Below are positions 2,779-21,478 of a stretch of DNA of 47,961 nt, piece by piece. The stretch's first letter is position 1; each line of letters opens with the position of its first letter. This DNA is from Acidobacteriota bacterium. Its GTDB lineage: Bacteria; Acidobacteriota; Thermoanaerobaculia; Multivoradales; J023. The stretch spans positions 1 through 47,961 of the forward strand of contig JBCBCF010000001.1 of the NCBI GenBank assembly GCA_038530905.1, written 5' to 3'. The notes below the pieces were generated by a model. It saw nothing but the letters and a program-made list of their open reading frames with translations, had not been told where the DNA came from and did no database searches. A program made the translations under genes and the position numbers.

Positions 2779-2868
2779 GGAGCCGATCCGTCTTGGTCCG
2801 TTCGCTGCAGCTGGAGAGAGATCAGCTCTCGGATTCCATCCCGCCGTTCGTCGCCCAGCCCCCATCCG

Positions 2869-4578
2869 ATGCCCTCCAGTCTGCAGTTGATCGTCTACGA
2901 CCGGTTTCGCGAGCAAAGCCGCTACACCTGGGACGGCTCACGCCTTCTCATCGGTCGCCGGGCCGACGCCGACATCCGAGTCGACGAGCCGACCATGTCT
3001 GCGATCCATGCGGAAATCAACGGCGACGGCGACGTTCTGCGCGTGCGCGACCTCGAGTCTCTGAACGGCACTCAGCTCAACGGCGAACGCATTCAGGAGA
3101 GTCCGCTGACGCCAGGCGACGAGATTCAGATCGGTCGAGCTCGCATCGTGCTCGACCGGATCGACTCGCAGAAAGATCGACCCAGCGACGAAGGACCCCT
3201 TGCGGCGCCGCTGACGGTCGGTTCGCAGACGGTCAAGATCAAACTCGCCACGCTGCGGGGCTCGGATCTCGAGCCAGGCCGAGAAGATCCGAGGATCCTC
3301 TTGCTCGCTGACCTCTTCGAGGCCTTGCGCTCGGTCGACGACCGAAATCAGGTTCTCGAGCAAACGCGGCCCGTGCTGCAGCAGGCCTTTCCGCGCGCCC
3401 GCATCTTCGTGCTGATGGCCGACGCCGAACAGGGCTGGCACGATCCGCAGATCGTCGACCTCAGCCGCCCGCCCAGCTTGACCTTTGTCCAAGAGGCAGC
3501 GCACAGCGACAGTGCGATCCTCTCGACCTCCCTCCCGGAGGATCAGCGCTTCTCGACCTCGGAGAGCGCGCGCATTTCCGGGATCGAAACGGCAATGGCG
3601 GCGCCGGCGCGGTGCGACGGGCACGCGGTGGCGGTGTTCTACGTCGATCGGCTCGGCCTGCCGGCCTTCATGCTGCCGGACCTCAACTTGCTCGCGATCG
3701 CCTCCAACCATGTCTCGGCCGTGCTCGAGAACGTCAGCCGCATCGCCGACCTGCGCCGCACCAACGCCGAGTTGGTCGAGGCACGCGAGACTCTGGCGAT
3801 GCTCAATCGCAATCTCGAGGCGGTGGTCGAGGAACGCACGGCCGAGATCCGCCGCCAGGCCGACGAGATCGCTGAGCTGGCCGAAGCCAAAGACGAGTTG
3901 TTGGGCATCGCGGCGCACGACATCCGCGGCCCGTTGACGGTCATTCAGGGCACCAGCGAGCTGCTGCGGCTGCGCGCCGGCAAGGTGGCGCCCGAGACGC
4001 TCGAGCGGAGCCTCGATCTGATGCACGGCGCCGCGCGCGGCCTGTCCCAGCTGCTTGGCGAGCTGCTGGACGCGAAAGCGATCGAGAACGGCAAGCTCCG
4101 CCTACAGCGGCTCGCGACACCGCTGGAGCATCTCTTCGCCGAAGTGTTGCCGGTGCCGAAGCTGGCGGCCGACGACAAAAAGATCGAGGTCGTCACGCGC
4201 ACCGAGCCCGACCTCCGGGCCGACGTCGACCCACAGAGGCTCGGCCAGGCGTTGACCAATCTCCTGCTCAACGCGGTGAAATTCTCTGAGCCGGGATCGC
4301 GCATCGTGCTCCATGGCCGCGGCGCCGCCGACCGGCTGGAGATCGAGGTCGAGGATCGCGGCGTCGGCATTCCCGAGGACGAGCTCGACCAGATCTTCGG
4401 CACGTTCGAGCAGGGACTCGCCGGCCGTCAGTTCGGCGGCAGCGGCCTCGGTCTAATGATCGCCCGCCGGCTCGTGGAGCTCCACGACGGCGAGCTGCGG
4501 GTCGAAAGCGAGGTCGGCGTCGGCAGCCGCTTCATTATGTCGCTTCCGCGGGCTGGTGGCATCGACCAGAACGACTGA
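2869..4578 (+). CDS. FHA domain - GAF-like domain - histidine kinase (HisKA + HATPase_c) fusion protein
   Basis: N-terminal FHA pattern (LLIGRRADADIRVDEPTMSAIHAEI...VRDLESLNGTQLNGERI). H-box LLGIAAHDIRGPLTVIQG. N/G boxes LLLNAVKFSE, DRGVGIP, GGSGLGLMIA. The start at 2869 (MPSSLQLIVYD) is uncertain; the ORF opens at 2707. Confidence 0.88.
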   Translation: MPSSLQLIVYDRFREQSRYTWDGSRLLIGRRADADIRVDEPTMSAIHAEINGDGDVLRVRDLESLNGTQLNGERIQESPLTPGDEIQIGRARIVLDRIDSQKDRPSDEGPLAAPLTVGSQTVKIKLATLRGSDLEPGREDPRILLLADLFEALRSVDDRNQVLEQTRPVLQQAFPRARIFVLMADAEQGWHDPQIVDLSRPPSLTFVQEAAHSDSAILSTSLPEDQRFSTSESARISGIETAMAAPARCDGHAVAVFYVDRLGLPAFMLPDLNLLAIASNHVSAVLENVSRIADLRRTNAELVEARETLAMLNRNLEAVVEERTAEIRRQADEIAELAEAKDELLGIAAHDIRGPLTVIQGTSELLRLRAGKVAPETLERSLDLMHGAARGLSQLLGELLDAKAIENGKLRLQRLATPLEHLFAEVLPVPKLAADDKKIEVVTRTEPDLRADVDPQRLGQALTNLLLNAVKFSEPGSRIVLHGRGAADRLEIEVEDRGVGIPEDELDQIFGTFEQGLAGRQFGGSGLGLMIARRLVELHDGELRVESEVGVGSRFIMSLPRAGGIDQND

Positions 4579-4606: not shown

Positions 4607-5467
4607 ATGCGCGACCTGGACCAGGACCATCTCGTTCGAGAACTTGACGTTGCGGTTGACGCCTGGCGCCGCCGCGGCTGGCCGGAGCCAGACGTTCTGC
4701 TGGTCTCGGGCTCCGGGCTGTCGATCGACCTCGGGCAGCCGCTCGCCGAGCCGGTGCCCTGGGCCGACCTCCTGCCCTTCGAGGTGGTCGGCATCGAGGG
4801 CCATCCGCTGACGGCGGAACTTCTCGAGCCCGTGCCGGGACGGGTCGTGCTGTCGTCACGGGGCCGGCTGCACGCCTATCAGGGCTATTCGCGCGCTCAG
4901 GTCGTGTTCACCATCCGCTTGGCGGCTCAGCTCGGCGCTCGGCTGCTGCTGATGACCAACTCGAGCGGTGGCCTGCGCCCGGAGCTCGGTGCCGGCAGTC
5001 TCGTGGCCATCGCGGATCACCTCAATTTGACCGGCGACAATCCGCTCTGGGGACGCTTCCCGGCCTCCTGGGGACCGCAGTTCCCGGACATGTCGCAAGC
5101 CTACGACCCCGATCTCCGCCGTCTGCTGCTCGACATCGCGCGCGCCGAAGGGATCGCAGTCGAGGAAGGGATCTACGCGGGTGTTCCAGGGCCGAGCTAC
5201 GAAACGCCGGCGGAAGTGCGGATGCTGCATCGGCTCGGCGCCGACGTCGTCGGCATGTCGACGGTTCTCGAGGTGATCGCCGCCCACCACCTGGGCATGC
5301 GCTGCGGATGCCTGTCGGTCGTCGCCAACCCCGGCGCCGGCGTCACCGACGAGCGTCTGGACCACGCCGACGTGCTGACGCAGGGTGCCGAGGCCGGGCG
5401 CCGCGTGGCTCACCTCTTCGAGCGGCTCCTCGCCCACCCCGATCTGCTCGCGCCTGCGGGCGTCTAG
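4607..5467 (+). CDS. punA: Purine nucleoside phosphorylase (trimeric PNP/PunA type)
   Basis: Motifs VSGSGLS, LHAYQGY, MTNSSGGL, GPSYETPAEVRML, GADVVGMSTVLEV and VVANPGAG. Confidence 0.88.
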   Translation: MRDLDQDHLVRELDVAVDAWRRRGWPEPDVLLVSGSGLSIDLGQPLAEPVPWADLLPFEVVGIEGHPLTAELLEPVPGRVVLSSRGRLHAYQGYSRAQVVFTIRLAAQLGARLLLMTNSSGGLRPELGAGSLVAIADHLNLTGDNPLWGRFPASWGPQFPDMSQAYDPDLRRLLLDIARAEGIAVEEGIYAGVPGPSYETPAEVRMLHRLGADVVGMSTVLEVIAAHHLGMRCGCLSVVANPGAGVTDERLDHADVLTQGAEAGRRVAHLFERLLAHPDLLAPAGV

Positions 5468-5510
5468 GCAGCGCCCGGCCGGTGCGCGGCGAGTCGTCGG
5501 CAGGGCTCGC

Positions 5511-7034
5511 TCAGCGGTGGATCATCAGCCAGAGCCCAGAATACGCACGCATCATCCGCATGCGCAGACGTTGCACGGCGGCCGCCTCGACGCTGTCGCC
5601 CTCGAGCACACATTGCTCGAGCCGGTGACTGTATTCACGCAGCACGCGATCGGCGCGTCGGCAGGTCGCCCGAGCTGTCTGAAAGACCGCTGAGTTGCGA
5701 TCGTGCTTGCTCTCATCGAGCAGTCCTTTGATCTCGGCGACGTCCTGTTCGACGCGGACGCGAAGCGCCGCGCCATCGAGGAGGAAGCTCTCGAAGACGC
5801 GGTCGCAGGGCAGATCGCCGTAGAGCCGCCGATAGGCCGTGACTTCGCGCGGCCCGATGCCGAGACTGAAGATCTCGGGCAGCAGAGCGATCTTGGCCGC
5901 GTCGATTGTCGCGTTGGTGTCGTCGAGGGCCGCCACGATCGCTTGACGCTGCTCGGCGACGCCAGCGCCAGAGCGCTCTTCGACCGCTGCCGGCGCGATC
6001 GCGTCGGACCGCCCACGATGGTCGAGCTGGTCGCCGGCATGCGCCGCGCTGCCGGGCCGAAGCTTCGGCACCAGGTCACGGACCTGACGCCTGAGCTCGA
6101 CCACCTGGTCAAGTTTGAGGTCGTCGCCAGCGAGCTGCTGCTCAAAGCGCTCCACTGTCTGCCGGAAGTCGGACAGCTCCTCGCCGAGCTGGACGCCGAT
6201 CGGAACGTCGCGCTCGAGCTCGAAGACCTGCTGGTATTCGGCAACGATGCGCTGCTCCTCGCGCTGATAGAGCCGATGCACGTGATTCTTTAGAGCGAGA
6301 TTGGCCGCCAGAATGTCGGGCAACAGGCGCGGATGAAAGTACTGGTCACCGAGCGAGTGCTTGAGGTCGCGATAGCGGGGCACCAGACGCGCCTCATGCA
6401 GGCCATCCATCGACTCGACGAGCTCGATTTCTCCGCGCAGGGCGGCGATCTCGGAGCGGCGCTCCTCGAGCGCCGTCTCGCTCGGTTCGGCCCGCGCCAA
6501 CGCCGCCCACAAGCCCTGCGCCACTTCGCGGACGTGGGTGCGGTCGCGCAACATGAACGACTCGTGCGGATCGCTGAACGTCTCGCACAGCTTGGTGACG
6601 AGGTAGTCGGCCTTGTCGAGCTGCTGATGCGCCCACGGCTCGTCTTGCCGACTGTAGAGGTAGAACTTGACCAGCTGCGAGAGGATCTTGTCGTCGTGGC
6701 TCTTGACCCGCTGGAAGAACTGACGCACCGTGCCGGGCGAGACCTCGCCATCGAGCGCGATCAAGAACTGCACGAGCTGCCCGAGGCGCCGAGCGATCTC
6801 GTCGAGCTGCTGGTCGGCGTCGCGCACCGTCGTCTCGGCGAGGTTCTGCGACACCCTCTTGAGGTCGGCGTAGACCTCCTGAAACTCGTCCGGGCGCGGC
6901 TCAGGCGAGTCGAACGACAGCCCGAACGTCTTGCGCAACCCGTGCGCGAACTGCTGGAATGTCCAGGCGGATTTGAAGTGGTTGGACGCTCGGATATAGC
7001 GCCGGTGGACCTGATTGAGCATCTGAACCGACAT
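5511..7034 (-). CDS. Hypothetical protein, ~507 aa, predicted all-helical, no signal peptide
   Basis: Long ORF with normal amino-acid composition (rich in charged residues, Leu and Gln rather than Arg/Pro/Gly). The ATG at 7034 is preceded by GGGGAG. I recognise no family motif. Confidence 0.6.
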   Translation of the reverse strand: MSVQMLNQVHRRYIRASNHFKSAWTFQQFAHGLRKTFGLSFDSPEPRPDEFQEVYADLKRVSQNLAETTVRDADQQLDEIARRLGQLVQFLIALDGEVSPGTVRQFFQRVKSHDDKILSQLVKFYLYSRQDEPWAHQQLDKADYLVTKLCETFSDPHESFMLRDRTHVREVAQGLWAALARAEPSETALEERRSEIAALRGEIELVESMDGLHEARLVPRYRDLKHSLGDQYFHPRLLPDILAANLALKNHVHRLYQREEQRIVAEYQQVFELERDVPIGVQLGEELSDFRQTVERFEQQLAGDDLKLDQVVELRRQVRDLVPKLRPGSAAHAGDQLDHRGRSDAIAPAAVEERSGAGVAEQRQAIVAALDDTNATIDAAKIALLPEIFSLGIGPREVTAYRRLYGDLPCDRVFESFLLDGAALRVRVEQDVAEIKGLLDESKHDRNSAVFQTARATCRRADRVLREYSHRLEQCVLEGDSVEAAAVQRLRMRMMRAYSGLWLMIHR

Positions 7035-7318
7035 CGGGTCTCCCCTCGAGGCTGTGGGCGCGAGCGTCCTGTTCCGGAATCGCCGGTCGAGGTCCGATCG
7101 CCGTCCGGCGATGCGTCGCGACGTCGCGGCACCACCCGGCGACTCCTCCATCGGAGGGCGCGTGGGCGCGGCGAGACACGCGGTCGCAGAGTGTCACGTG
7201 ATCGGCCGATGATCAGGGCCAGCGTGCCGCGATCTCGATCGGACACCTCTGCGTTTCGAGCGCAGAGGAACGCGCAAAGATCATCCGCTCATCGCCATTG
7301 ATCTCTGGAGTGTATGAG

Positions 7319-7861
7319 ATGTCGGCTTTCTCCCCTTCCCGCCCGCGGGTTTTGATCTCGACCGACGCGCTGCGCCAGCGGGTCGCTGAACTGGCCGCGG
7401 AGATTCAGCACGACTATCGAGACCGTGAACGGATCATCGCGGTCGGCGTGCTGAAGGGCTCGGTCTTCTTCCTTTCGGACCTCCTCCAGCAGATCGATCT
7501 GCCGATTTCCGTCGACTTCTTCCAGACCTCGAGCTACGGTGATCAGACCGAATCCGACGACGTGCGAATCATCAAAGATCTCGACGGCTCGGTGAGCGGA
7601 GCACACGTGCTGCTGATCGAAGACATCGTCGACACCGGCAAAACGCTGCGTACTGTCCTCGATCTGCTGAAGTTCCGCCGCGCCGCGAGCGTCAAACTGT
7701 GCACGCTGCTCGACAAGCAGGCGCGCCGGCAGGTCGACGTGCCGATCCACTACTGCGGCTTCGAGATCGACGACCACTTCGTCGTCGGATACGGTCTCGA
7801 TCACGCGGGCCTCTATCGCAACCTGCCGTACATCGGCGTCTACGAGGGCGGCGGCGCTTAG
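7319..7861 (+). CDS. hpt: Hypoxanthine-guanine phosphoribosyltransferase
   Basis: PRPP-binding motif VLLIEDIVDTGKTL and C-terminal VVGYGLDHAGLYRNLPYIGV. The ATG at 7319 has GGAG 11 nt upstream. An alternative TTG start lies at 7298. Confidence 0.9.
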   Translation: MSAFSPSRPRVLISTDALRQRVAELAAEIQHDYRDRERIIAVGVLKGSVFFLSDLLQQIDLPISVDFFQTSSYGDQTESDDVRIIKDLDGSVSGAHVLLIEDIVDTGKTLRTVLDLLKFRRAASVKLCTLLDKQARRQVDVPIHYCGFEIDDHFVVGYGLDHAGLYRNLPYIGVYEGGGA

Positions 7862-8385: not shown

Positions 8386-9744
8386 ATGATCCAACGCACG
8401 TTCTGCCTGCTCGCGACCCTCGCCGTCTGCGCGTGGCTGGTGTGGACCCGCCTGATCTGGCAGCCGATCGACGGCGTGCCGGTCATCGTGGTCGACATCG
8501 ACACGTTGCGCGCCGATCGGCTCGGGGCGTACGGCTACGAACGCGAGACGAGCCCCCATCTGGATGCCTTCGCGCGCGACGCGGCGTTCTTTCGCTGGAC
8601 CTTTTCGCAGGCGCCCAACACGCCGCCGTCGCAGTCGTCGATTCTCACCTCCCTCTATCCGACGACGCATGGCAAGTTCCGCAACCAGGCGGTCCTTCCT
8701 GCCGCGGCGACGACACTGGCCGAAGCGCTGAGCGCCGCCGGCTACCGCACGGCCGCGTTCGCCGACGGTGGACTGATGGCGGGCGGCTTCGGGTTCGAGC
8801 AGGGATTCGACACCTATGATGATGAAGGCGGCCGGCTGCGCGTGATCGGCCCGAAGGTCGTCGACTGGATCGACTCCACGCTGCGATCGGGCGATCGACG
8901 ACCGTTCTTCCTCTTCATCCACACGTACGACGTCCATACTCCGTACGAGGTCTCTCCTGCGCGCTTCCGCGATCGATTCCTCGAGAGCCTCGAGCGGCCG
9001 GACCGCGAGTTCCTAGCCGGGGTCTCGGCGGCAATGTCCGAGGCCGAGCGTCGCAACAAGGCCGGTCAACCATCGCCGCTCGACGCTCTGCAGCTCCAGT
9101 GGATCGAGGCGCTCTACGACGGCGGCATCCGCCACGTCGATTGGTGGTTCGGCAAGTTCATCGGCGTGCTCCGCCAGCGCCAGCTGCTCGAGCAGGCGAT
9201 CGTGGTGGTGATCTCGGACCACGGCGACGCCTTCCAAGAGCACGGCCGGCTGTTGCACGCGGTGACCTACTCTCCTGTGACCCGCATCCCGTTCATGCTG
9301 CGCGCTCCGGGTGGACGAGGCGCCGGCGTCTACGACGAAGTCGTCCAGTCGATCGACCTGATGCCGACCGTTCTCGATCTCCTCGACCTCGAGATTCCTC
9401 ACCAAGCGCAAGGGCAAAGCCTCCGCCCGCTGCTCGAGGGCGGTGCTCTGCCGCAGCAGCTGGCGTTCACCTCCGACCCGCACGCCACGCGCTTCACCGT
9501 GACGACGACGCGCCATCGCCTGCACTGGCGCCCCGAGGGTGGTTCGACGGAGCTCTACGCCTATCGCGACGACCCGCTGGAGCAGGTGCCACTCGACGAT
9601 CCGGAGACGGAGGAGCGGCTGCTCGCGCAGGTCGGCCAGTGGCTCGAGACCACTCAATCGACCCAGCTGCAAGAGTCCGCCGAAGTCGAAACCATCGATG
9701 ACGAGCTGACCCGCCAGCTGCGCGCCTTGGGCTACCTGGACTGA
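8386..9744 (+). CDS. Sulfatase-like hydrolase/transferase (alkaline-phosphatase superfamily), paralog 1, N-terminal signal anchor
   Basis: VVDIDTLRADRLGAYGYERETSPHLDAFA metal-binding N-terminus. The nucleophile segment reads NTPPSQSSILTSLYP (Thr where sulfatases have Cys/Ser). ISDHGDAF is present. The C-terminus ends LRALGYLD. Confidence 0.82.
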   Translation: MIQRTFCLLATLAVCAWLVWTRLIWQPIDGVPVIVVDIDTLRADRLGAYGYERETSPHLDAFARDAAFFRWTFSQAPNTPPSQSSILTSLYPTTHGKFRNQAVLPAAATTLAEALSAAGYRTAAFADGGLMAGGFGFEQGFDTYDDEGGRLRVIGPKVVDWIDSTLRSGDRRPFFLFIHTYDVHTPYEVSPARFRDRFLESLERPDREFLAGVSAAMSEAERRNKAGQPSPLDALQLQWIEALYDGGIRHVDWWFGKFIGVLRQRQLLEQAIVVVISDHGDAFQEHGRLLHAVTYSPVTRIPFMLRAPGGRGAGVYDEVVQSIDLMPTVLDLLDLEIPHQAQGQSLRPLLEGGALPQQLAFTSDPHATRFTVTTTRHRLHWRPEGGSTELYAYRDDPLEQVPLDDPETEERLLAQVGQWLETTQSTQLQESAEVETIDDELTRQLRALGYLD

Positions 9745-11501
9745 TGGTTCTGCGCCGACTGACGGCCGTTTGCATCCTCTGCGTTTTCGCCCTCGGCTGC
9801 GCGAATCGGCGGCCTGACGCGACGATCGAGGTGGCCTCACACCGCGTCGATCTGCTGCGCGTGCCGGCGTCGACCACACCCGGGCCGAAGACTCAGCCGC
9901 TGCGCCGCGCGCGCCTGACGGTCGAGGCGGGCGACGTGCTGCGAGCCGACGCTCGCCTGTCGCGCCGCGGGGCCAGCGGCGACGGCCGGGCGACGTTCGT
10001 GCTCGCGGTCGACGGCGAGGAGGTCGCGCGACTGCCGCTCGAGGTGACGAAGGCGCACGACGCCGACGTCGCGACCCTCGACCTCGAGCCTTGGCTCGGG
10101 CGCGACGTCGAGATCGAAGCCCGCATCGAGGGCGCCGGCGACGGCTGGCACGCCTACTGGCAGTCGCTGGCGGCCGAGCGCGTCCAAACCGTCGAGAGAC
10201 GCACGTCGGAGGCGGGCCGCAACGTCCTGTTGGTCATGGTCGACACCCTGCGCGCCGATCATCTGGGACTCTATGGCGCCACCCGCGACACGAGCCCTCG
10301 TCTCGACGCGTTCGCGAGCCGGGCACGGGTCTTCGACCATGCGCTGGCGCCGTCGAGCTGGACGTTGCCGTCGGTCGCCGCATTGTTCACCGGCCTCTAC
10401 CCGCGCGACCGAGGCTGGGCGGACGGTCAGGCGCTCGAGCTGCATCATCTGCTGCTGCCGCAACGCCTGCAGCGCGCCGGCCTCTCCACCTTCGCCTCGA
10501 GTGCCAACCCGCTGATCGCCCCGTCGCACGGATTCGATCGCGGCTTCGAGGTCTTCCAGCATCGGCCGTGGGAGCTTGCTCCGCGCCTTCACGACGACTT
10601 TTTCGCCTGGCTCGATCGCCATCGCGAGACGCAGTGGTTCGCTTACCTCCACGCGATCGATCCCCATGATCCCTACACCGATTCACCGGAGCCCTTCGCG
10701 TCCCGCTTCGTGCGCGACCCCGACTACGACGGAGTCTTTGCCGATCCCGGCGCGCTCAATCGGATCCACCTCGAGTCCGCGTGGGGCGACCGGGACGCCG
10801 TCGACGTCGAGGCCGCCGACCTCGACTGGCTGATCGACAAATACGATGGCGAGATCGCGTTTTGGGATCACCACTTCGGGCGTCTGATCGACGGTCTCGA
10901 AGCACGTGGCCTGCTCGAACGGACGATCGTCATCGTCATGTCCGATCACGGGGAAGAGTTTCTCGAGCACGGCTTCCTAAAGCACGGCCGCTCGCTGTAT
11001 CGGCCGGCGCTGCACGTGCCGCTGCTCATCTTCGCGCCGGGCCTCGTCGAGCCCGGGCGCGTCGACGCAGTGGCCGAGACGATCCGACTCGATCGCGCGA
11101 TTCTGCAGCTCCTGCGACTCGACGAAGGACCGTCCCGCCCGAACGATCTCCTCCGCCTCGAGGATGGGGATCGATTCCCGGCCTTTGCCACCACGCGCGT
11201 TCCGCACGGTCCGGGAATCAGCCGCCGCTACAGCCTCGACGCGGTGCGCGAGGACGCGCTCAAGCTCGTGCATCGGCCGGACGACGACGGCCTGGAGGCG
11301 TGGACCGAGCTCTACGACCTGAACGTCGATCCTGGCGAACAGACGTCGCTTGCCGAGGCCCGTCCCGAGCAAGCCGAGGCTCTGCAGCAACTCCTCGACA
11401 CATGGGCTCGCTCGAGCGGCCCGCGCTCGAGCGATGCCGAGCGCGGCGAGCTCCAGCCCGAGGAGCTCGAGGCGCTCCGCGCCCTCGGCTACGTGCAGTA
11501 G
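9744..11501 (+). CDS. Sulfatase-like hydrolase/transferase lipoprotein, paralog 2, with a ~150-aa N-terminal extra domain
   Basis: Lipobox (FALGC). LVMVDTLRADHLGLYGATRDTSPRLDAF. Nucleophile segment WTLPSVAALFTGLYP. MSDHGEEF. Ends LRALGYVQ. The start overlaps the paralog 1 stop (TGATG). Confidence 0.82.
   Translation: MVLRRLTAVCILCVFALGCANRRPDATIEVASHRVDLLRVPASTTPGPKTQPLRRARLTVEAGDVLRADARLSRRGASGDGRATFVLAVDGEEVARLPLEVTKAHDADVATLDLEPWLGRDVEIEARIEGAGDGWHAYWQSLAAERVQTVERRTSEAGRNVLLVMVDTLRADHLGLYGATRDTSPRLDAFASRARVFDHALAPSSWTLPSVAALFTGLYPRDRGWADGQALELHHLLLPQRLQRAGLSTFASSANPLIAPSHGFDRGFEVFQHRPWELAPRLHDDFFAWLDRHRETQWFAYLHAIDPHDPYTDSPEPFASRFVRDPDYDGVFADPGALNRIHLESAWGDRDAVDVEAADLDWLIDKYDGEIAFWDHHFGRLIDGLEARGLLERTIVIVMSDHGEEFLEHGFLKHGRSLYRPALHVPLLIFAPGLVEPGRVDAVAETIRLDRAILQLLRLDEGPSRPNDLLRLEDGDRFPAFATTRVPHGPGISRRYSLDAVREDALKLVHRPDDDGLEAWTELYDLNVDPGEQTSLAEARPEQAEALQQLLDTWARSSGPRSSDAERGELQPEELEALRALGYVQ
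11232..11501. repeat. Left (intact, coding) copy of a ~250-bp dispersed direct repeat; the partner lies at about 15821-16078
   Basis: A run of identical or near-identical nucleotides begins at ACGCGCTCAAGCTCGTGCATCGGCC (11254 versus 15834) and continues to the stop codon. Confidence 0.85.
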
Positions 11502-11555
11502 ATCGCGGGCGGCGGTCCAGCGAGCAGCACGCGGAGTGACCAGAGGGCCGACCTG

Positions 11556-14996: not shown

Positions 14997-15787
14997 TGGC
15001 GGCCCCGCCTCGAGGCGACCTCGGGTCCAGAAAACCTGTCGGTCCGACCGTGATCGCGCGTGGCGTCAATCACACCTTCGGCAGCGGCGGCCTCGAGAAG
15101 CAGGTCCTCTTCGAAGTCGACCTGCAGCTGGACGCCGGGGAGGTGGTGATGCTCTCCGGGCCGAGCGGCAGTGGCAAGACCACGCTCCTCACCTTGATTG
15201 GCGCCCTGCGCACGCTGCAGGATGGAGAGATGACAGTGCTCGGCTGCGATCTGCGGCGCGCTTCCGAGAAGGATCGCAACCGGCTGCGGCGCGGCATCGG
15301 ATTCGTCTTCCAGCAGCACAACCTTCTCGGTTTTCTGACCGCACGGCAGAATGTCGAGCTGATGTTTCAGCTCCATCCGAAGGTTTCGCGGCACGAAGCG
15401 CGCCGCCGGACGGAGGACATGCTCGCCAAGGTCGGCCTCGAAGATCACCTCAACGAGCATTCGTCCCATCTCTCAGGCGGTCAACAGCAGCGCGTCTCCA
15501 TCGCACGAGCGCTGGTCGGCAATCCTCGGCTGATTCTGGCGGACGAGCCGACCGCCGCTCTGGACAGCCAGACTGGACGCCGAGTGGTGGACCTGCTTTC
15601 GGAGCTCGCGGTCGACAACGGCTGTTCGGTCCTGATCGTGACGCACGATGCCAGAGTGCTCGACGCCGCTCACCGCATCGTGACCATCGAAGACGGCGCC
15701 GTGCAGGTTCGCCCCGGCAGCCAAGGCACAGGCCAGAGCGAACCTCGAAACACCGGCAAGGCCGGCCCTGGCGCCGTCCTCGCGTGA
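14996..15787 (+). CDS. devA: DevA-family ABC transporter ATP-binding protein
   Basis: Walker A GPSGSGKTT, signature LSGGQQQRVSIARAL, Walker B LILADEPTAALD. It has a TGATG overlap with devC. The track ORF start at 14780 is an out-of-context extension. Confidence 0.9.
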   Translation: MAAPPRGDLGSRKPVGPTVIARGVNHTFGSGGLEKQVLFEVDLQLDAGEVVMLSGPSGSGKTTLLTLIGALRTLQDGEMTVLGCDLRRASEKDRNRLRRGIGFVFQQHNLLGFLTARQNVELMFQLHPKVSRHEARRRTEDMLAKVGLEDHLNEHSSHLSGGQQQRVSIARALVGNPRLILADEPTAALDSQTGRRVVDLLSELAVDNGCSVLIVTHDARVLDAAHRIVTIEDGAVQVRPGSQGTGQSEPRNTGKAGPGAVLA

Positions 15788-15820: not shown

Positions 15821-16078
15821 CCTCGAGACGCGAACGCGCTCAAGCTCGTGCATCGGCCTGCCGACGACGGCGCGGAGGCGTCGACCGAGCACTCTGACCT
15901 GGATGTCGATCCTGGCGAGCAGACGGTTCTTTCGAACACCCGCCCCGAGCAAGCCGAGACTCAGCAGGGACTCCTCGACGCACGGACTCGCTCGAGCAGC
16001 CCAAGCTCAGGCGATGCCGAACGCGGCGAGCTTCAGTCCAGCCCGAGGAGCTCCGTGCTCTCGGCTACCCGCAGTCAG
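15821..16078 (+). pseudogene. 5'-truncated, frameshifted remnant of a sulfatase-like gene 3' end (closest to paralog 2)
   Basis: It translates as ALKLVHRPADDG..DLDVDPGEQT..RPEQAE..SGDAERGELQ. Paralog 2 reads ALKLVHRPDDDG..DLNVDPGEQT..RPEQAE..SSDAERGELQ. A 5-nt insertion shifts the frame so that PEELRALGYPQ continues in another frame. There is a 9-nt deletion and the stop codon is lost. Confidence 0.85.
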
Positions 16079-16093
16079 GAGGCGAGACCTCCC

Positions 16094-16131
16094 ATCGGCA
16101 TTCTGTTGGGAGATCGGCATTCTGCTGGGAG
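16094..16131. repeat. Tandem direct repeat, 2 x 19 bp (ATCGGCATTCTGTTGGGAG / ATCGGCATTCTGCTGGGAG)
   Basis: Read directly from the sequence, with one mismatch. It lies between the sulfatase remnant and the stop codon (16140) of the low-GC cassette. Confidence 0.9.
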
Positions 16132-16139
16132 GAAGCGTC

Positions 16140-16442
16140 TCAGGCGACGCTCGCTGCTTGCAGCACTGACTCACCACTGCGGTAGCGCAAATCCCTCAGA
16201 TACAAACGGTCCAGATCTTCGCATTCGTAGCGAACTTCAAACCGCCCACAATAAAGACACGTCACACCGTTGCCGGCGGAAGAGAGCGTCGGAAGAACCT
16301 CTTCATCATGTGAACATTCATTGACAAAGATCCGGTGAAGGAGGTCGCGGAGTTCCTTTCGCTGCCAGTTCTTCAGCTCTCTTCTCCAGCTCGAGTGAAC
16401 ATCTCCGACAAAGACTGTATCTGAACGATGTCTTCGATTCAT
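16140..16442 (-). CDS. Hypothetical 100-aa Cys/His-containing protein (downstream gene of the low-GC cassette)
   Basis: ATG start with a 4-nt ATGA overlap onto the stop of the upstream ORF. It has a basic N-terminus and the residues C43-x-H45, C62-x2-C65 and C74. Its GC content is far below the flanks. No family recognised. Confidence 0.5.
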   Translation of the reverse strand: MNRRHRSDTVFVGDVHSSWRRELKNWQRKELRDLLHRIFVNECSHDEEVLPTLSSAGNGVTCLYCGRFEVRYECEDLDRLYLRDLRYRSGESVLQAASVA

Positions 16443-17113
16443 TGTCGCTCCTCAATCTTGAGACTAAATTGATCGATCAGGCTTTGGGCTAGACTTGTGG
16501 ACGACTGCTCGACTTCTTCCGACCAGCGCTCAACCGAGGCGAGAGCCTGCGGAATGGTGTCGTGAGGCGGCTTTCGAATGCTTGCCAGAACTGCTTGGCG
16601 GCTGTCTTCCGAGGAAGATCTGGACAGCAATTCGCTGAGTTGTTCGACCGCCCGATTGTAGCTCAGGATATCGCCCCTGAGATCTTCCATGAGAAAAATG
16701 GCCTGCTGCAGTAGGCCAATTCGTGCGTGCCACGGCTCGGTCAGCATGGCCGGCAGCTCAACCACTTCCCAATCATCCGGTGGTCGATCGAAACGATTTT
16801 CATTCAATCGAACAAGAAACTCTCCAGCTAATTCTCGAGAGGTAGAGACCTGTTCTTCGAGGACCTTCAACTGGACGACGAAGACTGCTGCCGCAGTCTC
16901 TTCCCGTTGCTTTCTCCACCGCTTCTCTCGACGCTCCGAACTCAAGGCAGAGAGATACGCCAAGACACCGGCCACAAGAGCCAAGACTCCCGCGATCAGG
17001 GTCTGGTGGAGATAAACGAAGGAATCCGTGGCGCCCGTCGCCTGGACTCCGGACGAAGCGATGAGACTCGCGAAACAAGAAATGGTTGACGGCACCAGAT
17101 CGATCCTCGGCAA
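16439..17113 (-). CDS. Hypothetical 224-aa membrane protein with a helical or coiled-coil cytoplasmic domain (upstream gene of the low-GC cassette)
   Basis: Strong TM helix TLIAGVLALVAGVLAYLSAL, preceded by a weaker hydrophobic segment. This is followed by RREKRWRKQRE and about 150 aa of helical sequence. It has a TTG start at 17113 and no internal ATG for about 130 codons, so the start is uncertain. No family recognised. Confidence 0.5.
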   Translation of the reverse strand: MPRIDLVPSTISCFASLIASSGVQATGATDSFVYLHQTLIAGVLALVAGVLAYLSALSSERREKRWRKQREETAAAVFVVQLKVLEEQVSTSRELAGEFLVRLNENRFDRPPDDWEVVELPAMLTEPWHARIGLLQQAIFLMEDLRGDILSYNRAVEQLSELLSRSSSEDSRQAVLASIRKPPHDTIPQALASVERWSEEVEQSSTSLAQSLIDQFSLKIEERQ

Positions 17114-17387
17114 GACCTATCGGCGATGAAGCGTTGACCTGGCGACGATGGCGATCGCAGCAGCACCTTCGGAAAGAGTCTACAGCAGGCCTCTGGGCGG
17201 GTCCATTCGCGCTCCGAACGGATGGACCTCTGCCTCCCCAGGTGGCGCCCGACGATCCGTGTCACCTTCGCAAGCAGACGCCCGACAGCCGCGAGCGACT
17301 GCGGCCCGCAGCGCTAGCCGACCGCTCGTTCCCGCCGGAATCCGTGGGGTCCCCTCCACCGACCAGGACCTCTGGCGCAGCTTGCGT

Positions 17388-19856
17388 TCAATCCCAGGCC
17401 GACGTGTTGCCGCTCTCGAACCCGTTCTCGAAAATCAACCCTTCGACGAAGCTGCCGTCGAAGGCGATCGTCCGCTGGACCGCGCCCTGCTCGGTGAGGA
17501 GGAACAGCCGGTAGGCGGTCGACAGGCTGGGCGGGTTGACTGTCGTTTGGCCGGTGGCGCTCTGCGGCGGATTCGAGGCATCGCGATCGATCGAGACGCC
17601 GAGAAAGCTTCCGGCCGTGAGGCTCCAGGAGAGCGTCGTCGCCTGCCCCGGCGACGGATCCGTCGGATCAGCGTCGAAGCTCCCCTCCGGATCGGGAGCG
17701 GCACTCACCGTGTCCTGGACCTGCTGGCTGTCGACCTCGAGCGTGTGCGGACCCACGCCGACCTCTTCGACACCAAAGTTGCCGGTCACCGAACCGTCGT
17801 CGAACGTCGCCTGCGCGGCGCCGGTCCAGGCAAAGCCGATCGGCGTGTCGGAGTCGACCGCGTCGCCCACCGCGCCGTCGGCCAGGACCCGCGGCGGAGC
17901 GGCGAGGATGTCGGCGAGGGTCGGCGCCGAGCCGAGAAGGGCGTTGCCGGACCCTTTGTCCGAGTTGGCAGCCCCGGATCGCACCACGACCAGCCCGTTC
18001 AGGCCGGCCGGCGTCTGAAGACTGCCGTCGATCTCGTTGAAGAAGACGTTGTCGTCCGCGCGACCGGTGAAGAAGTCGTTGTTCTGGAAGACCATCGAGT
18101 TGATCGGTCCGTTCTGATAATCACGCTCGAAAATCTCGACCTTGTTGTGCTCGGAGAACGTCGAGTTCGTGATCATGCCGCTGGTCTCCAGGCCAAAGCC
18201 GAGATCCTGGTTGGCGAAGATCACCGCTCCGTTGTTGCCGGTGATCAACTCGTTCTCGTAAAAGCGGCTGTTCGACACGTTGACCTCCGAGCCCGAGATC
18301 AACATCACGCCACCTCGGCTCTGCGCGCGATTGGCGGCGAAGACCGAGCCGACGATGTCGGCCGTCGAATCGAGGAGGAAGCGCATCGCACCGCCGTTGG
18401 CGACATCGAATCGCGCCTCGTTGCCGATGAACAACGAGTCCCTCAGGTTGAGGTCGACATGGACCATCTCCATGGCCCCGCCGGAGCCGTTGACGTCCCC
18501 CACCTCCTGTTCGACGTCGCACTCGGCGAAGAGAGTGCTGAAGACATCGATCGGCACTCGATTCTCCGCCGAGGTTCCGATGGGCGGAACGCCGTTGCGC
18601 CCGAACGTGCGATTGCCGTCACCTTCGGCGAAGAGACAGCCTCCCTGGCGCGCTGAGAATCCAATGTCGCGCCCGCGCAGCGACGAATCCTCGATTCTCA
18701 GGGAAGACGACGGGCGGTTGATGCCGACGTCGTCGTCGCCTGGCGTATTGGAGTCGTTCGAGTTCGAGAAGATCCCGCCGCCGAGACCACCACGACCTCC
18801 GGCGTCCACCTCTACCGCGTTGCCCTCGAACTCCGAGTCGTAGATCTCCAGCTGCGAGCGGTACTGACTGACCGCACCGCCGTTGGTCGCCTCGTTATCG
18901 AAGAAGCGGGAACCATAAATCTCGATCTTGGCCTGGTTCTCGCTGTGGATCCCACCTCCGACCGCCGGAAAATCACACGTCACGCCGCTGGCCGAGCGCG
19001 CGACATTGCCGATGAAGGTCGAGTTGGCGACGCGCCCGGTGCTGCGCGGCACGTCGGTCGGCGTCTGCCAGGGCGAGAGCAGAAAGATCCCACCGCCGAC
19101 GCAGCCCGAGGAGTTCGACACGAAGCGGCTCTCGGACACATCGAGCGTCGCGTTGGTCGCGTGGATGGCACCCCCGGCGGCCGACGTGCGATGGCCGCTG
19201 ACGGCCGTCGTGTTGCGATCGAAGGTCGTGCGATGAACGAAGGCCGACGCGTCGCCGACGCGCAGGCCGCCGCCCTCGTTCTGCGAGCTATTGCCCTCGA
19301 AGAGACTGTCGAAAAGGTGAACGATCGAACCGTTGAAGGCGAAGAGGCCGCCGCCGCCGGTACTGGAGGCACGCGTCGCGTTGTCGCGGAACTCGCAGTC
19401 GACGAAGGTCATGCGGCCGCCGGCCAGCGTCACGCCGCCACCGCGCGCGCCGGTCGTGTTGAACCCGTCGACGAAGTCGATGTTCTGGAAGACGATCGAG
19501 GCGTCGCTCGGCGTGCCCTGATTGAGATAGACGAGCACGCGGCGCGCTCCCTCTCCGGTAAGCGTGACGGTCGAACCGTCGACCGCACGCACCGTGAAGC
19601 TCTTGGAGAAGTCGGTGATCGTGAAGCCACCGCCCGGCGACGCGTACGTTCCGCCCGCAACCTCGATCACGCCACCGTCGTCTACGAGCGAGAATGCCGT
19701 TTGCAGCGTCGCGTCGCCAGGCACTTCGACAAACTCGTCGGCGGCCGCCGGGGCTGCCAGCAGGGCGAAGCACAGAAAAGCGCGCTGCCAGGCGGCAAAC
19801 TTTGTCGGCTGACGGCCCTCCAAGGGACGCGACGCCAAGAGGCGAACATGGGCCAT
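17388..19856 (-). CDS. Secreted right-handed beta-helix repeat protein (Pmp-like GGxI/FxxN repeats), ~820 aa
   Basis: Signal peptide (AFLCFALLAAPAAADEF). There are many repeats of the type GGGLFAF..S.FEGN, GGAIHATN..S.F.SN, GGGIFLL, F.DNEATNGGAV and F.ANRA..RGGV. The ATG at 19856 has AGGAGA upstream. No beta-barrel or recognised anchor is present. The protein ends FENGFESGNTSAWD. Confidence 0.8.
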   Translation of the reverse strand: MAHVRLLASRPLEGRQPTKFAAWQRAFLCFALLAAPAAADEFVEVPGDATLQTAFSLVDDGGVIEVAGGTYASPGGGFTITDFSKSFTVRAVDGSTVTLTGEGARRVLVYLNQGTPSDASIVFQNIDFVDGFNTTGARGGGVTLAGGRMTFVDCEFRDNATRASSTGGGGLFAFNGSIVHLFDSLFEGNSSQNEGGGLRVGDASAFVHRTTFDRNTTAVSGHRTSAAGGAIHATNATLDVSESRFVSNSSGCVGGGIFLLSPWQTPTDVPRSTGRVANSTFIGNVARSASGVTCDFPAVGGGIHSENQAKIEIYGSRFFDNEATNGGAVSQYRSQLEIYDSEFEGNAVEVDAGGRGGLGGGIFSNSNDSNTPGDDDVGINRPSSSLRIEDSSLRGRDIGFSARQGGCLFAEGDGNRTFGRNGVPPIGTSAENRVPIDVFSTLFAECDVEQEVGDVNGSGGAMEMVHVDLNLRDSLFIGNEARFDVANGGAMRFLLDSTADIVGSVFAANRAQSRGGVMLISGSEVNVSNSRFYENELITGNNGAVIFANQDLGFGLETSGMITNSTFSEHNKVEIFERDYQNGPINSMVFQNNDFFTGRADDNVFFNEIDGSLQTPAGLNGLVVVRSGAANSDKGSGNALLGSAPTLADILAAPPRVLADGAVGDAVDSDTPIGFAWTGAAQATFDDGSVTGNFGVEEVGVGPHTLEVDSQQVQDTVSAAPDPEGSFDADPTDPSPGQATTLSWSLTAGSFLGVSIDRDASNPPQSATGQTTVNPPSLSTAYRLFLLTEQGAVQRTIAFDGSFVEGLIFENGFESGNTSAWD

Positions 19857-20020
19857 GAGGTCAGATCTCCTATGGTTCAGCGAGGCAACGCTCGCGAATC
19901 GTCCGGGGCTCATTCCTGATGCAGCGAGCGTTCCACTTTCGACGACGGCGCGTAGCCGTCGGCGGTTCACGACCGATTGAGCGGATCGCCTGACCGACGA
20001 TCGATCTCAACGAAGACATC

Positions 20021-21478
20021 TTAGAAATAGCCGAGTGCCTCCAGTCGGCGACGGGTTTCCGGCGCCAGCGGGCGACCTCCGGAGGCCTCGGTCCTCACCT
20101 CGAGAGCGCGCTCCGCCGCCTGGATCCGCAGCCGCTCCAGGCGGCCGAGGAGATGCGCCGTCAGCTCGGGACGCTGGCGCGCAACATCGAGCCGTTCGTC
20201 TGGATCAGTCCGGAGGTCGAAGAGGCGCGATCGACCGCTCTCGGGCACATGCACGAGCTTGTAGCGCGGCGTGCGCAACGAATACAGCCGACGTGCATAT
20301 TGCGAGAAGACGGCGCGCGAGCGCGGCAGCTCGGCGGCAGCCAAAAGGTCGCGGCCCTCCGGCTCGATCGCCGGCTCGACCCGCGCCGCGGCGTACAGGG
20401 TCGCCGTGAGATCGACGGTCGACACCGGTGCTTCTTCCACCTTCCCCGCCTCGACGCCCGGCCCGACCACGATCAGCGGCACGTGGAGCAGCTCGTCGAA
20501 GAGGGTGGCGGGATGCAGCACGCCGCGATGGTCACCCAGCTCTTCGCCGTGATCCGACGTCACGATGATCAGGGTTCGATGCAGAAAGCCCCGGCGCTCG
20601 AGATGTCCGAACAGGCGCTCGAGCGTCTCGTCGGCATGACGAATGCCGGCGTCGTAGAGCCGGCCGAGCCGATCCGCGATCGGGCCGTCCGGCTCGACCC
20701 GCGTCCATGTCAAGCGCTGCAGGGAGCGGGTGGTGCCGAGATGCGCCGAGCCGAGGGCGCCGAAAGCACGGCGCCACCGGCGCGGCGCCTCGTAGGGCGA
20801 GTGGATGTCGTAGGTGTGAAGAAAGACGAAGAGCGGACGACCGTGCCCCCGCTGGCGCTCGAGCTCGGCGAGTAGGCGCTGGCCTGCCCGCTGCAGGCTC
20901 AGGCTCTCGTGCCAGACGTCGAAGCCGCGATCGAAGCCGAAATCGCGCGACAGGAAGCCGCCGCCTGAAAAGCCGAGCGTGGCGTACCCGGCATCACGCA
21001 AGGCGGCGGGCACGATCGGGAGCTCCGGAGGTAGGCGATCGTCACGCCGGTCGCGCGGCCGCGGTCCGCGCTTCGCGCCATCGGCATACGGCATCGAAAC
21101 GCCGTGGGTCTCCTGATAGAGCCCGGTCCACAGGGTGGCGTGCGACGGCGGTGTGCCGTGCGTGTTGACGAAGGCGCGGGAGTAGCGCGTGCCCTGCCGC
21201 GCCAGCGCATCGAGAAACGGTGAAGTGTCGCGCGTGTGTCCGTAGCTGCCCAGGCGATCGGCGCGCAGCGCGTCGAGAGAGACGATGAGGACATTCGGCG
21301 GGGCGTCCGCCCGGCGAGCGCCGAGAGGCTCCGCGCCGGCGGGGCTGGGCCGCTCGGCGGAACCACAGGCGGTCAGGCTCAGCGTCAAATAGAGAGCCAG
21401 GCTGAGGATCGAGACCCAGCGCCCGACCACCGCCACCGCCGCCGACCGCGCGGCGAGCCGCGTCGCACCAGCGATCAT
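20021..21478 (-). CDS. Sulfatase-like hydrolase/transferase lipoprotein, paralog 3
   Basis: Lipobox (SLTAC). [29 protein letters not shown]. Nucleophile segment [26 protein letters not shown]. Ends LEALGYF. Confidence 0.82.

Follow-up and report, generated by a model that had tools for sequence, protein, structure and literature searches.

A coupled gene pair in a low-GC islet of an Acidobacteriota contig: a possible toxin-antitoxin module with a membrane-tethered partner

In the type II toxin-antitoxin (TA) modules RelBE, YefM-YoeB, ParDE and DinJ-YafQ, the gene of the partner comes first and that of the toxin second. The mRNA interferases of this group use defined catalytic sets, namely K52, K54, R61, R81 and Y87 in RelE, and E46, R65, H83 and Y84 in YoeB. 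Membrane proteins are found in other classes. In the type V pair GhoS-GhoT, GhoT is a 57-aa lytic peptide and GhoS, an antitoxin RNase with a Cas2-like fold, is encoded first; SpoIISA has three transmembrane (TM) helices. The SpoIISA-SpoIISB(-SpoIISC) system of Bacillus consists of a larger membrane protein and a small cytosolic binder encoded by adjacent genes (PMC4526809, PMC4926146). PanAT and RosmerTA, from the NetFlax analysis, are hyper-combinatorial two-gene modules with one membrane-embedded partner and defence-island contexts (PMC10440598). In the NetFlax pairs the TM protein is a depolarising toxin, and the antitoxin is of the Panacea, Xre or zinc-peptidase type (PMC10440598). The membrane-embedded partner of characterised TA systems is normally the toxin (PMC10440598; for SpoIISA, PMC4526809). 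Wording such as "membrane-anchored antitoxin" or "transmembrane antitoxin" was absent from approximately 8 million full texts, and broader queries on membrane-bound antitoxins returned SpoIIS, NetFlax and unrelated papers only.

The locus considered here lies in a window of 47,961 bp, by which the whole stretch of DNA analysed is meant. Positions 16140-17113 have a GC content of 0.543 vs. a contig-window mean of 0.675 (z = -4.4 in 974-bp windows). This is the GC minimum of the entire window, the next lowest non-overlapping window having 0.609. The sharp drop described in the initial annotation of this DNA is therefore real, and the three hand counts given with it (27/60, 26/60, and 43/60) were all exact on recount. 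The GC content of third codon positions is 0.60 in the upstream gene of the cassette (gene A) and 0.525 in the downstream gene (gene B), compared with 0.78-0.83 in the flanking genes. The islet extends from about 16080 to 17180, which is essentially the cassette and some 90 nt of leader. Two signs of a horizontally acquired islet, atypical composition and a patchy cross-phylum distribution, are present. On the other hand, no mobility signatures were found at its borders in the window: terminal repeats, whether direct or convincingly inverted, are missing, as are a tRNA, an integrase and an Rfam family. The earlier proposal of horizontal acquisition is thus supported by composition and distribution but not by mobile-element ends. 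In the closest genome compared, the Acidobacteriota relative L001 (75% DevC identity), the cassette is absent and unrelated genes follow right after devA; as synteny breaks at this very point, an empty insertion site is not reconstructable.

Both ORFs of the cassette are real genes. They lie on the minus strand at 16439-17113 and 16140-16442, as first annotated, and share an ATGA stop/start overlap (16439-16442, minus strand) that can be read directly from the sequence. Gene A appears in the deposited record (P0001) as "hypothetical protein AAGN46_00075" with a GTG start at 17095, which gives 218 aa (16439-17095, minus strand), while a TTG at 17113 would give the 224 aa of the initial annotation. 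The depositor's call, together with a Shine-Dalgarno-like GAGGA (17104-17108, minus strand, read from the sequence) 8 nt upstream of the GTG, makes GTG 17095 the likely start; the longer frame exists, but the protein probably has 218 residues. Gene B (16140-16442, minus strand), a putative toxin gene of 100 aa, is preceded by a Shine-Dalgarno-like GAGGAG (16448-16453, minus strand) located 5 nt upstream of its ATG, inside the 3' end of gene A. It is unannotated in this record and in the other NCBI record with deposited annotation; homologs were found by gene calling on other assemblies, and the exact window B sequence is absent from a collection of 15 billion proteins.

Homologs exist for both proteins. 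A search of 1.84 billion representative proteins yielded five distant homologs of A (E 4e-13 to 6e-4). The A-B module is very rare, with seven loci (genomes or metagenome contigs) among approximately 15 billion proteins; L084 and L085 have the same sequence and were counted once. The loci are spread over at least two phyla; among them are Acidobacteriota and an isolate of the Bacteroidota, Reichenbachiella sp. MSK19-1. No further members of the family were detected in IMG/VR, JGI metagenome contigs, plasmids or phages. A protein of L084 with a TM segment and a helical part (3386-3988) was considered as a paralog of A and rejected. Each of the seven independent loci has a B homolog directly after A on the same strand, with overlaps of 4, 4, 19, 25, 25, and 50 nt or a gap of 14 nt. 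A and B are strictly paired and coupled, and the tight coupling noted in the initial annotation is kept throughout the family. Neither protein matches a housekeeping family, and neither is recognised by any Pfam, NCBIfam, PADLOC or PHROGs model; the initial annotation had likewise assigned neither to a family. With PADLOC-DB v2, the window proteins and 10 family members gave 0 matches at E <= 10.

An AF2 model of B, which is a prediction built on a 5-sequence family alignment and not a solved structure, has a pLDDT of 79, a pTM of 0.66 and the topology beta-alpha-alpha-beta4 (E10-12, H16-22, H25-40, E52-56, E59-64, E68-75, E79-87). The model has the elements by which the RelE/ParE fold is recognised: an N-terminal strand, two helices, and a 3-4-stranded antiparallel sheet within 85-100 aa. 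When compared with the PDB by Foldseek, its best match was 3bpq_D (prob 1.00, TM 0.59/0.66, rmsd 2.9), and the top matches were almost only RelE, YafQ, YoeB, HP0892/HP0894, HigB, BrnT, and ParE. Approximately 25 of the top 33 PDB matches were to toxins of the RelE superfamily; the probabilities reached 1.00 and the TM values lay at 0.5-0.68 over 80-90 aligned columns, with modest E-values of 0.016-0.5. From this model, B is predicted to have a RelE/ParE-superfamily toxin fold. Judged by alignments that are in register but not significant, its invariant tyrosine (Y87) stands at the end of the last strand, as do Y87 of RelE and Y84 of YoeB; R86 is present in 3/7 sequences.

According to Kyte-Doolittle analysis, A has a single TM helix (16943-16999, minus strand; residues L33-L51 of the 218-aa form). 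The helix follows the conserved motif F/Y-x-Y-x-[YH]-Q-x-L-[IV]-x-G-x-x-A-L-x-x-G, and after it comes the basic stretch SSERREKRWRKQREE. One TM segment per protein was scored in 6/7 members of the A family; in P0005 the segment falls below the cut-off, and the conserved TM motif is still carried. Of the strong and the weak TM helix initially assigned to A, only the strong one scores. The weak one was rejected, as it would lie in an N-terminal extension that is absent from all homologs and does not score as TM. Across the family there are no Lys or Arg residues on the N side of the TM helix and 3-7 on the C side, which argues for an N-out/C-in topology; this topology would put the acidic domain of A on the cytoplasmic side, and so in the compartment of B. 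From its sequence, A is predicted to be a single-pass TM anchor joined to an acidic helical cytoplasmic domain of approximately 150 aa. A single-sequence AF2 model is all-helical at a confidence too low for structure searches (pLDDT 49), and a profile search of A against PDB sequences returned designed coiled coils only. None of the seven members showed a DNA-binding domain, A matched no known antitoxin, and the Pfam SpoIIS family matched neither A nor B. Two other assignments were set aside: SLATT (SLATT_fungal, E = 0.14) is below the cut-off, occurs in the window copy only (0/6 other members) and concerns a protein with a single TM helix, and hints of holin and Trp_oprn_chp, likewise sub-threshold, fall within the TM part of the window A and recur in no other member.

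The cassette shares its layout with the type II RelE/ParE modules (RelBE, YefM-YoeB, DinJ-YafQ, ParDE), in which the partner comes first, a toxin-fold gene of about 90-100 aa second, and the frames overlap. As in these modules, the upstream protein is acidic (pI 4.7-5.9 in the A family) and the downstream protein basic (pI 8.9-9.8 in most B family members), the classic TA asymmetry, and the predicted fold of B superposes on RelE, YoeB, and YafQ with TM 0.5-0.68. The window B is atypical, with a pI of 6.9 and without the family's C-terminal tail Y-C-x-K-A-R-R, so that this copy may be attenuated. B is better conserved than A in 14/15 locus pairs. A thus has some features of an antitoxin, being less conserved, acidic, coupled, and placed upstream of a toxin-fold gene. 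A mirror-tree comparison of A with B gave a signal owed to one close pair, without which r = 0.29 and p = 0.19. In contrast to the type II modules, B has no detectable similarity to the curated RelE, ParE, YoeB, and HigB models, and its conserved residues include one histidine and three or four cysteines. Similarly, A differs from type II antitoxins (RelB, ParD, YefM/Phd, HigA) in its size (200-220 aa, about twice the usual) and in starting with a conserved TM helix in place of an RHH, HTH, Phd/YefM or AbrB domain. The toxin-like fold of B, together with a membrane-anchored acidic A in the antitoxin position, suggests that the pair is probably an undescribed TA variant. Our main reading, to which we give a probability of roughly one half, is that the islet is a horizontally acquired, self-contained, non-canonical type II-like TA module with a membrane-tethered partner. 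The initial annotation had proposed an acquired TA, abortive-infection or defence module; composition, pairing, the predicted fold of B and contexts elsewhere support this, whereas mobile ends and a PADLOC match were not found. Of the contrary findings that the initial annotation had named, those open to sequence analysis (a uniform composition, missing homologs, homologs that never occur together, a housekeeping family) did not turn up. The toxicity of B, the polarity of the pair, the target of the toxin, and any role in defence are what we infer.

In such a module, B, a protein of some 95 aa, would most likely poison translation by ribosome-dependent mRNA cleavage, like RelE, YoeB, and YafQ; action as a ParE-like gyrase poison is less likely. 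As A is encoded upstream of B and translationally coupled to it, A would be made first and at least stoichiometrically. It would be inserted in the inner membrane through its one N-terminal helix, N-out/C-in, and its acidic helical domain of about 150 aa could then bind and neutralise B in the cytoplasm, thereby sequestering it at the membrane. The anchor of A would stand in for the DNA-binding domain of canonical antitoxins, which suggests control by the stability or conformation of A at the membrane, and not by operator binding. Candidate triggers are turnover of A by a membrane protease such as FtsH, and envelope stress or phage proteins that disturb an oligomer of the TM helix. A fully specified form, in which an oligomerising single-pass antitoxin keeps a translational toxin of RelE fold inactive at the inner membrane and lets it go once phage membrane proteins, envelope stress or FtsH-dependent turnover, for example, disturb the membrane or the TM oligomer, is tentative and, taken as a whole, rather doubtful. 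The conserved Cys/His cluster of B could serve as an added redox or metal switch.

Several points weigh against the main reading: B lacks sequence-level similarity to known toxins, its fold is assigned from few sequences and with modest E-values, and the neighbours in the window are not defence genes. The distribution of conservation within A also speaks against A as antitoxin, since conservation peaks in the TM helix and not in a toxin-binding region. The majority fraction is 0.62 in the TM region vs. 0.37-0.46 elsewhere in the shared part, and the invariant residues are Q31, L33, G36, A39, L40, and G43. An invariant glutamine and small residues such as G36, A39, and G43 are typical of helix-helix packing, and this would suit a reversed polarity in which A is a membrane toxin whose TM oligomer depolarises or permeabilises the membrane, and B is a RelE-fold neutraliser or regulator. 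By analogy, B could bind the cytoplasmic domain of A, as SpoIISB does, or cleave the message of A, as GhoS does with ghoT. The membrane component is the toxin in known pairs (PanT, RmrT, and toxFtsL, PMC10440598; also SpoIISA). The holin and SLATT hints on the window A, weak and non-significant as they are, point the same way. So does the apparent absence from B of the catalytic arginine equivalent: in non-significant, in-register alignments, the beta3 arginine (R61 of RelE, R65 of YoeB) corresponds to Glu/Gln in the B family, by which an RNase activity of B is only putative. Against this, the holin and SLATT hints occur in no other family member, and a single TM helix with a large acidic soluble domain is unlike the small lytic membrane toxins. 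B is the basic and more conserved protein and A the acidic and faster-evolving one, the opposite of what reversed roles would lead one to expect. To our knowledge, there is no case of a RelE/ParE-fold protein acting as an antitoxin.

The described membrane pairs can be set beside the cassette in the same light. SpoIIS resembles it in that a larger membrane protein, part of which is a cytoplasmic domain, is bound by a small cytosolic protein from an adjacent gene. Unlike here, the membrane protein of SpoIIS is the toxin and the small protein an antitoxin without a RelE fold, and the charge and conservation asymmetries of A and B point the other way. PanAT and RosmerTA are likewise two-gene modules with one membrane partner and defence contexts; here, however, it is the soluble partner that has the predicted toxin fold, and no PADLOC or Pfam model matches either protein. 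GhoS-GhoT, in which a membrane protein likewise has a partner of RNase-type fold, is a conceptual analogy only; A has 200 aa and a large acidic soluble domain. Taken together, reversed polarity is unlikely, although it is the alternative that survives best.

The neighbourhoods of the cassette elsewhere bear on another possibility, that of a dedicated anti-phage abortive-infection system in which A would sense infection at the membrane (phage membrane proteins, injection or holin) and release or activate B. Two loci have the longest informative contexts. In one of them, L086 (Reichenbachiella sp. MSK19-1, 10001-10950), AbiLi (PADLOC 1e-77) and an integrase fragment as well as a ParE toxin pair lie <=6 kb from the cassette; in the other, L081, an NTase-HEPN protein adjoins it. 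In L081, an independent GC-rich genome, the cassette again forms a low-GC islet (0.49 vs. 0.635), and in Reichenbachiella it lies in a lower-GC stretch with an integrase fragment. A compact islet, the patchy cross-phylum distribution, and a conserved TM helix with no obvious enzymatic role would also agree with such a system. The expected proximity to defence genes thus holds in L086 and L081, but PADLOC recognises neither A nor B. Moreover, the context is long enough to judge at just these two loci, and clustering with defence genes is common to TA genes anyway. In the window the cassette is flanked by genes other than defence genes, namely those of an ABC exporter and an 860-aa protein and a fragment of a sulfatase gene, and no relatives were found on phages, plasmids or IMG/VR contigs. 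The extracytoplasmic part of A is only 5-25 residues, which leaves little for sensing outside the cell. Compared with a TA module in general, a dedicated anti-phage role is quite improbable.

Slightly less probable still is that the pair is no toxin system at all. It could be a rare accessory membrane-associated pair, for instance a membrane scaffold with a small Cys/His protein bound to it that has a redox role or binds metal, in which case the likeness of B to RelE would be convergence or model error. The initial annotation had described a possible zinc knuckle in B (C43xH45...C62xxC65...C74). C43 (7/7), H45 (6/7), C62 (6/7), and C74 (7/7) are indeed conserved, and 5/7 sequences, the window copy not among them, have a further cysteine after Y87. 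Such a set is unusual for RelE/ParE proteins, and metal binding by these residues is possible. C65 is found in the window copy only, and by their positions in the secondary structure of the model the Cys/His residues map onto a RelE-like alpha/beta fold; a zinc knuckle or ribbon was therefore rejected as the fold of B. Sequence comparisons are also in keeping with a non-toxin pair. No Pfam or NCBIfam model matched any of the 5-7 B members at E <= 10, and hhalign gave probabilities of 2.6% with E. coli RelE, 0.1% with YoeB, and 0.1% with the bona fide ParE toxin of L086. The B profile found no toxin among PDB sequences, and sequence-level proof that B is a RelE, YoeB or ParE failed (BLASTP of the W...WQ helix of P0008 to helix 1 of YoeB, E = 0.087). 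Combined with the modest Foldseek E-values, these results would leave room for convergence. However, the structural matches of B are dominated by one superfamily, and gene order, coupling, size, charge asymmetry, and neighbourhoods all suit a TA module. Finally, both frames could be open by chance alone, in non-coding or decaying DNA of higher AT content. This is hardly credible, despite the missing annotation of B and a codon usage atypical for the host, and is already refuted by the conservation of motifs, lengths, order, and overlaps in both proteins across seven loci of different phyla, beside which stand the confident AF2 model of B and the Shine-Dalgarno motifs before both starts.

A and B define two protein families outside Pfam, NCBIfam, PADLOC, and PHROGs. 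If the main reading is true, a membrane-anchored protein without a DNA-binding domain would be a new partner class for RelE/ParE toxins. The seven members would then form a test set for toxin control by membrane sequestration as opposed to operator binding and Lon/Clp turnover, and for membrane status as the trigger of a translational toxin. Should release from the membrane also hold, it would be a new regulatory logic for TA and abortive-infection systems, with a direct link from the state of the envelope to the arrest of translation. As the family is so rare and the evidence wholly computational, the module is a well-defined lead and not a discovery. That B was missed in both annotated NCBI records indicates that small, atypically composed toxin genes can escape routine annotation.

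The DNA on both sides of the cassette has features of its own. Upstream of gene A, a non-coding leader of 292 nt separates it from the 860-aa gene (17096-17387, minus strand), and in the GC profile the low GC is limited to its proximal 90 nt or so. Counted from ORF A as first annotated, the gap to the 860-aa ORF is 274 nt; it had been described as non-coding, and no convincing ORF was found inside. Searches of the leader gave no sigma-70 promoter match, no RNA structure (RNA fold z = +1.5), no Rfam match, and no operator-like palindrome. Downstream of gene B, the gene-rearrangement scar reported earlier is a 3' pseudogene fragment of a sulfatase (15829-16078, plus strand; blastn, tblastx, and alignment). 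It is a direct copy, at 81% identity, of 11247-11502, the last 83 or so codons of the sulfatase gene at 9744-11501 (Pfam Sulfatase); it has a 4-nt deletion, and its end coincides with the position of the stop codon of its parent. Between this fragment and the cassette lies the 19-bp tandem duplication ATCGGCATTCTGYTGGGAG, also reported earlier, in two copies (16094-16131, plus strand) that differ at one base. The repeat is unique in the window, where 0.02 matches are expected by chance, and a third copy is present neither elsewhere in the window nor at the other edge of the islet. It lies 8 nt past the stop codon of gene B and marks the left edge of the islet.

The segment at 16140-17113, where the initial annotation had noted a sharp fall in GC content, has a G+C content of 54.3% against a mean of 67.5% for the 47,961-bp window, which is one complete contig of an NCBI MAG labelled 'Acidobacteriota bacterium'. 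It is the lowest of all 974-bp windows (z = -4.4; the runner-up among non-overlapping windows is 60.9%), and the three earlier hand counts were exact. At 80-bp resolution, the dip runs from ~16080 to 17180 and takes in both genes plus a leader of ~90 nt. GC3 is 0.60 in ORF A and 0.525 in ORF B, vs. 0.78-0.83 in the flanking devC, devA, and 860-aa genes. Also present are the two ORFs, their ATGA stop/start overlap (16439-16442), a 19-bp tandem repeat (16094-16131), and a 274-nt gap. No tRNA, Rfam family, terminal repeats, or further copy of the 19-bp repeat was found at the islet borders, and plasmid, phage, IMG/VR, and JGI metagenome collections yielded no relatives.

ORF A (16439-17095, minus strand) is the depositor's hypothetical protein AAGN46_00075, starting from a GTG at 17095 (218 aa) with GAGGA 8 nt upstream. 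ORF B (16140-16442) has GAGGAG 5 nt ahead of its ATG, and its exact sequence has no entry among ~15 billion proteins. Word-indexed searches for A homologs returned A itself only, and an exhaustive HMMER search over 1.84 billion representatives identified five distant relatives (P0002-P0006; E-values 4e-13 to 6e-4, 24-33% identity, 197-223 aa), of which P0002 stems from a cultured Bacteroidota isolate, Reichenbachiella sp. MSK19-1. In every retrieved context (contigs L080, L081, L082, L083, and L084; L085 has the same sequence as L084 and was counted once), the A homolog is followed immediately by an ORF of 88-100 aa on the same strand. These small ORFs align with B, sharing the invariant residues C43, Y64, C74, and Y87 and the motifs W..WQR.EL, C.H, and CLY.KYEL.Y.C. 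In Reichenbachiella (contig L086), the B homolog lies at 10663-10950, overlaps A by 19 nt, and is likewise absent as an exact sequence from the 15-billion-protein collection; neither of the two NCBI records (Acidobacteriota MAG, 16140-16442; Reichenbachiella, L086 10663-10950) includes B in its deposited annotation. When 5.8 billion proteins were searched with a profile built from the B alignment, only those A-partner ORFs matched. Homologs exist for both ORFs, and they co-occur as neighbors in all seven independent loci, where the two frames overlap by 4-50 nt or are separated by 14 nt. Protein-level homology, together with pairing and coupling kept in seven loci, excludes chance ORFs; the A/B family is genuine and very rare.

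As the initial annotation had recognized neither protein, so no member of the A or B family has a significant match in Pfam, NCBIfam, PADLOC, or PHROGs. A contains a single hydrophobic segment, with a conserved motif, Y-x-[YH]-Q-x-L-[IV]-x-G-x-x-A-L-x-x-G, on its N-terminal side and a basic stretch on its C-terminal side; the second, weak TM helix formerly ascribed to A is a 25-residue N-terminal extension of the window copy that is absent from all homologs. Counts of Lys plus Arg are 0 N-terminal to the segment and 3-7 C-terminal to it, which predicts an N-out/C-in topology and places the other ~150 residues in the cytoplasm. This domain is acidic (pI 4.7-5.9) and predicted to be all-helical. 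Conservation within A is highest in the TM segment, whose invariant Gln and small-residue pattern are suggestive of helix-helix association.

According to AlphaFold2, run with a five-sequence alignment, B adopts a beta-alpha-alpha-beta-beta-beta-beta topology (pLDDT 79, pTM 0.66; all five models 76-79). When this model was compared with the PDB using Foldseek, the top ranks were almost exclusively RelE/ParE-superfamily toxins: RelE of M. jannaschii (probability 1.00, TM 0.59/0.66, rmsd 2.9 over 83 columns) and T. thermophilus, YafQ of E. coli and V. cholerae, HP0892 and HP0894, HigB, BrnT, YoeB of S. aureus and E. coli (TM up to 0.61/0.68), and ParE. The E-values are modest (0.016-0.5) and the list of matches is consistent; a viral structure library gave nothing informative. 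The model, predicted from a shallow alignment, fits a RelE/ParE fold. Sequence comparison gave no significant link: hhalign, with RelE and YoeB sequences checked against the PDB, gave 2.6% probability to E. coli RelE, with helices and strands in register, and 0.1% each to YoeB and to the bona fide ParE encoded on L086. Where RelE and YoeB have their beta3 arginine, B has Glu or Gln in these weak, non-significant alignments, so B could act as an RNase, poison gyrase as ParE does, or do something else.

Homologs of B are basic (pI 8.9-9.8) vs. a pI of 6.9 for the window copy, which lacks the C-terminal tail Y-C-x-K-A-R-R of the family. It departs from the family after the invariant Y87, reading YRSGESVLQAASVA in place of that tail (16140-16184). 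An alternate frame 16 nt downstream encodes CCKQRAS (16165-16145), similar to the tail seen in the family, and this copy may have undergone indels or partial decay. Because of its divergent C-terminus and neutral pI, the window B may be attenuated.

Taken together, an islet of atypical composition, strict pairing and coupling, a partner-first, toxin-fold-second order, an acidic upstream and a basic downstream protein, the greater conservation of B than A, and the predicted fold of B are consistent with a type II-like toxin-antitoxin module in which B is the putative toxin and A its putative neutralizing partner. A would sequester B at the membrane, and control could then be exerted through the stability or state of A there. 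The main rival reverses the polarity, with A a membrane toxin and B its neutralizer, as in characterized pairs with a membrane component, where that component is the toxin: NetFlax-type pairs (PMC10440598) and SpoIIS (PMC4526809). Both the charge asymmetry and the conservation asymmetry (B exceeds A in 14 of 15 pairs) speak against this reversal. We also know of no RelE-fold antitoxin, which argues against B as the neutralizer.

With B as toxin, the module most resembles RelBE, YefM-YoeB, and ParDE in function. B is not recognized by RelE/ParE sequence models, and A, membrane-anchored and double the size of a usual antitoxin, lacks the DNA-binding domain that defines canonical antitoxins. The module is absent from PADLOC, and none of six wordings for a membrane-bound antitoxin was found in ~8 million full texts. 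If true, pairing a RelE-fold toxin with a partner tethered to the membrane would represent a new control logic. Support is computational throughout, with the fold derived from few sequences and the family seldom encountered; it nonetheless offers a small, clean test set for experiments, cultured host included.

An abortive-infection role is a plausible extension of the toxin-antitoxin reading, with two neighborhoods as its basis. The L081 cassette, from an independent genome of ~64% GC, likewise forms an islet of low GC (0.49) and is convergent with a gene for an NTase-HEPN fusion protein. The Reichenbachiella cassette lies inside a ~9-kb stretch of lower GC, which it shares with AbiLi (PADLOC E = 1e-77) and its small partner, a ParE toxin preceded by a 77-aa gene, DUF7683, and an integrase fragment. 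In the window, the neighbors are a devBCA-type ABC exporter, a sulfatase fragment, and an 860-aa protein. In L086, the AbiLi homolog and the ParE_toxin gene lie with their partner genes at 4768-6415 and 7094-7605; a 146-aa gene downstream of AbiLi weakly matches NsnC, and the 77-aa partner upstream of the canonical ParE_toxin gene has no family match. Upstream of the L081 cassette, ~1 kb without called genes (5019-6001) also has lowered GC (0.565-0.575), and what was acquired in L081 may extend beyond the two genes. Downstream of the L084 cassette are three uncharacterized genes (1547-3988), one (148 aa) with a weak DUF8426 match and another (387 aa) with a GIY-YIG-like stretch, YIGLTSRNWQTRYREH, seen by eye only. 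The remaining one encodes a 184-200-aa TM plus helical protein that hhalign rejected as an A paralog.

The gene-rearrangement scar reported beside the cassette is real: 15829-16078 is a direct copy, 81% identical to 11247-11502, of the final ~83 codons in the sulfatase gene at 9744-11501. The copy lies 4.3 kb downstream of its parent, contains a 4-nt deletion, and stops exactly where the stop codon falls in the parent. Between the two 3' ends lie an AraC/DJ-1 regulator gene and the devBCA-type exporter operon, so recombination between sulfatase paralogs may have inserted or duplicated this block. Three intact sulfatase-family genes and the fragment occur within 13 kb (8386-11501 and 20021-21478), and the region looks like a sulfated-glycan utilization neighborhood. 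In L001, the closest available relative (75% DevC identity), an aldehyde dehydrogenase gene directly follows devA; synteny breaks exactly after devA, and L001 gives no reconstructable empty site. Its devA orthologue ends right after a conserved IEDGA[IV]Q motif, where homology of the two genomes stops, vs. a ~26-aa C-terminal extension (…VRPGSQGTGQSEPRNTGKAGPGAVLA) in the window devA-like ATPase (15705-15787). The 860-aa ORF (17388-19970, minus strand), which shares the strand of the cassette and directly precedes it, has no Pfam match at E ≤ 0.001; its G/N/S/T-rich repeats are suggestive of a beta-helix surface protein, and its 3' end contains a terminator-like hairpin (17464-17440).
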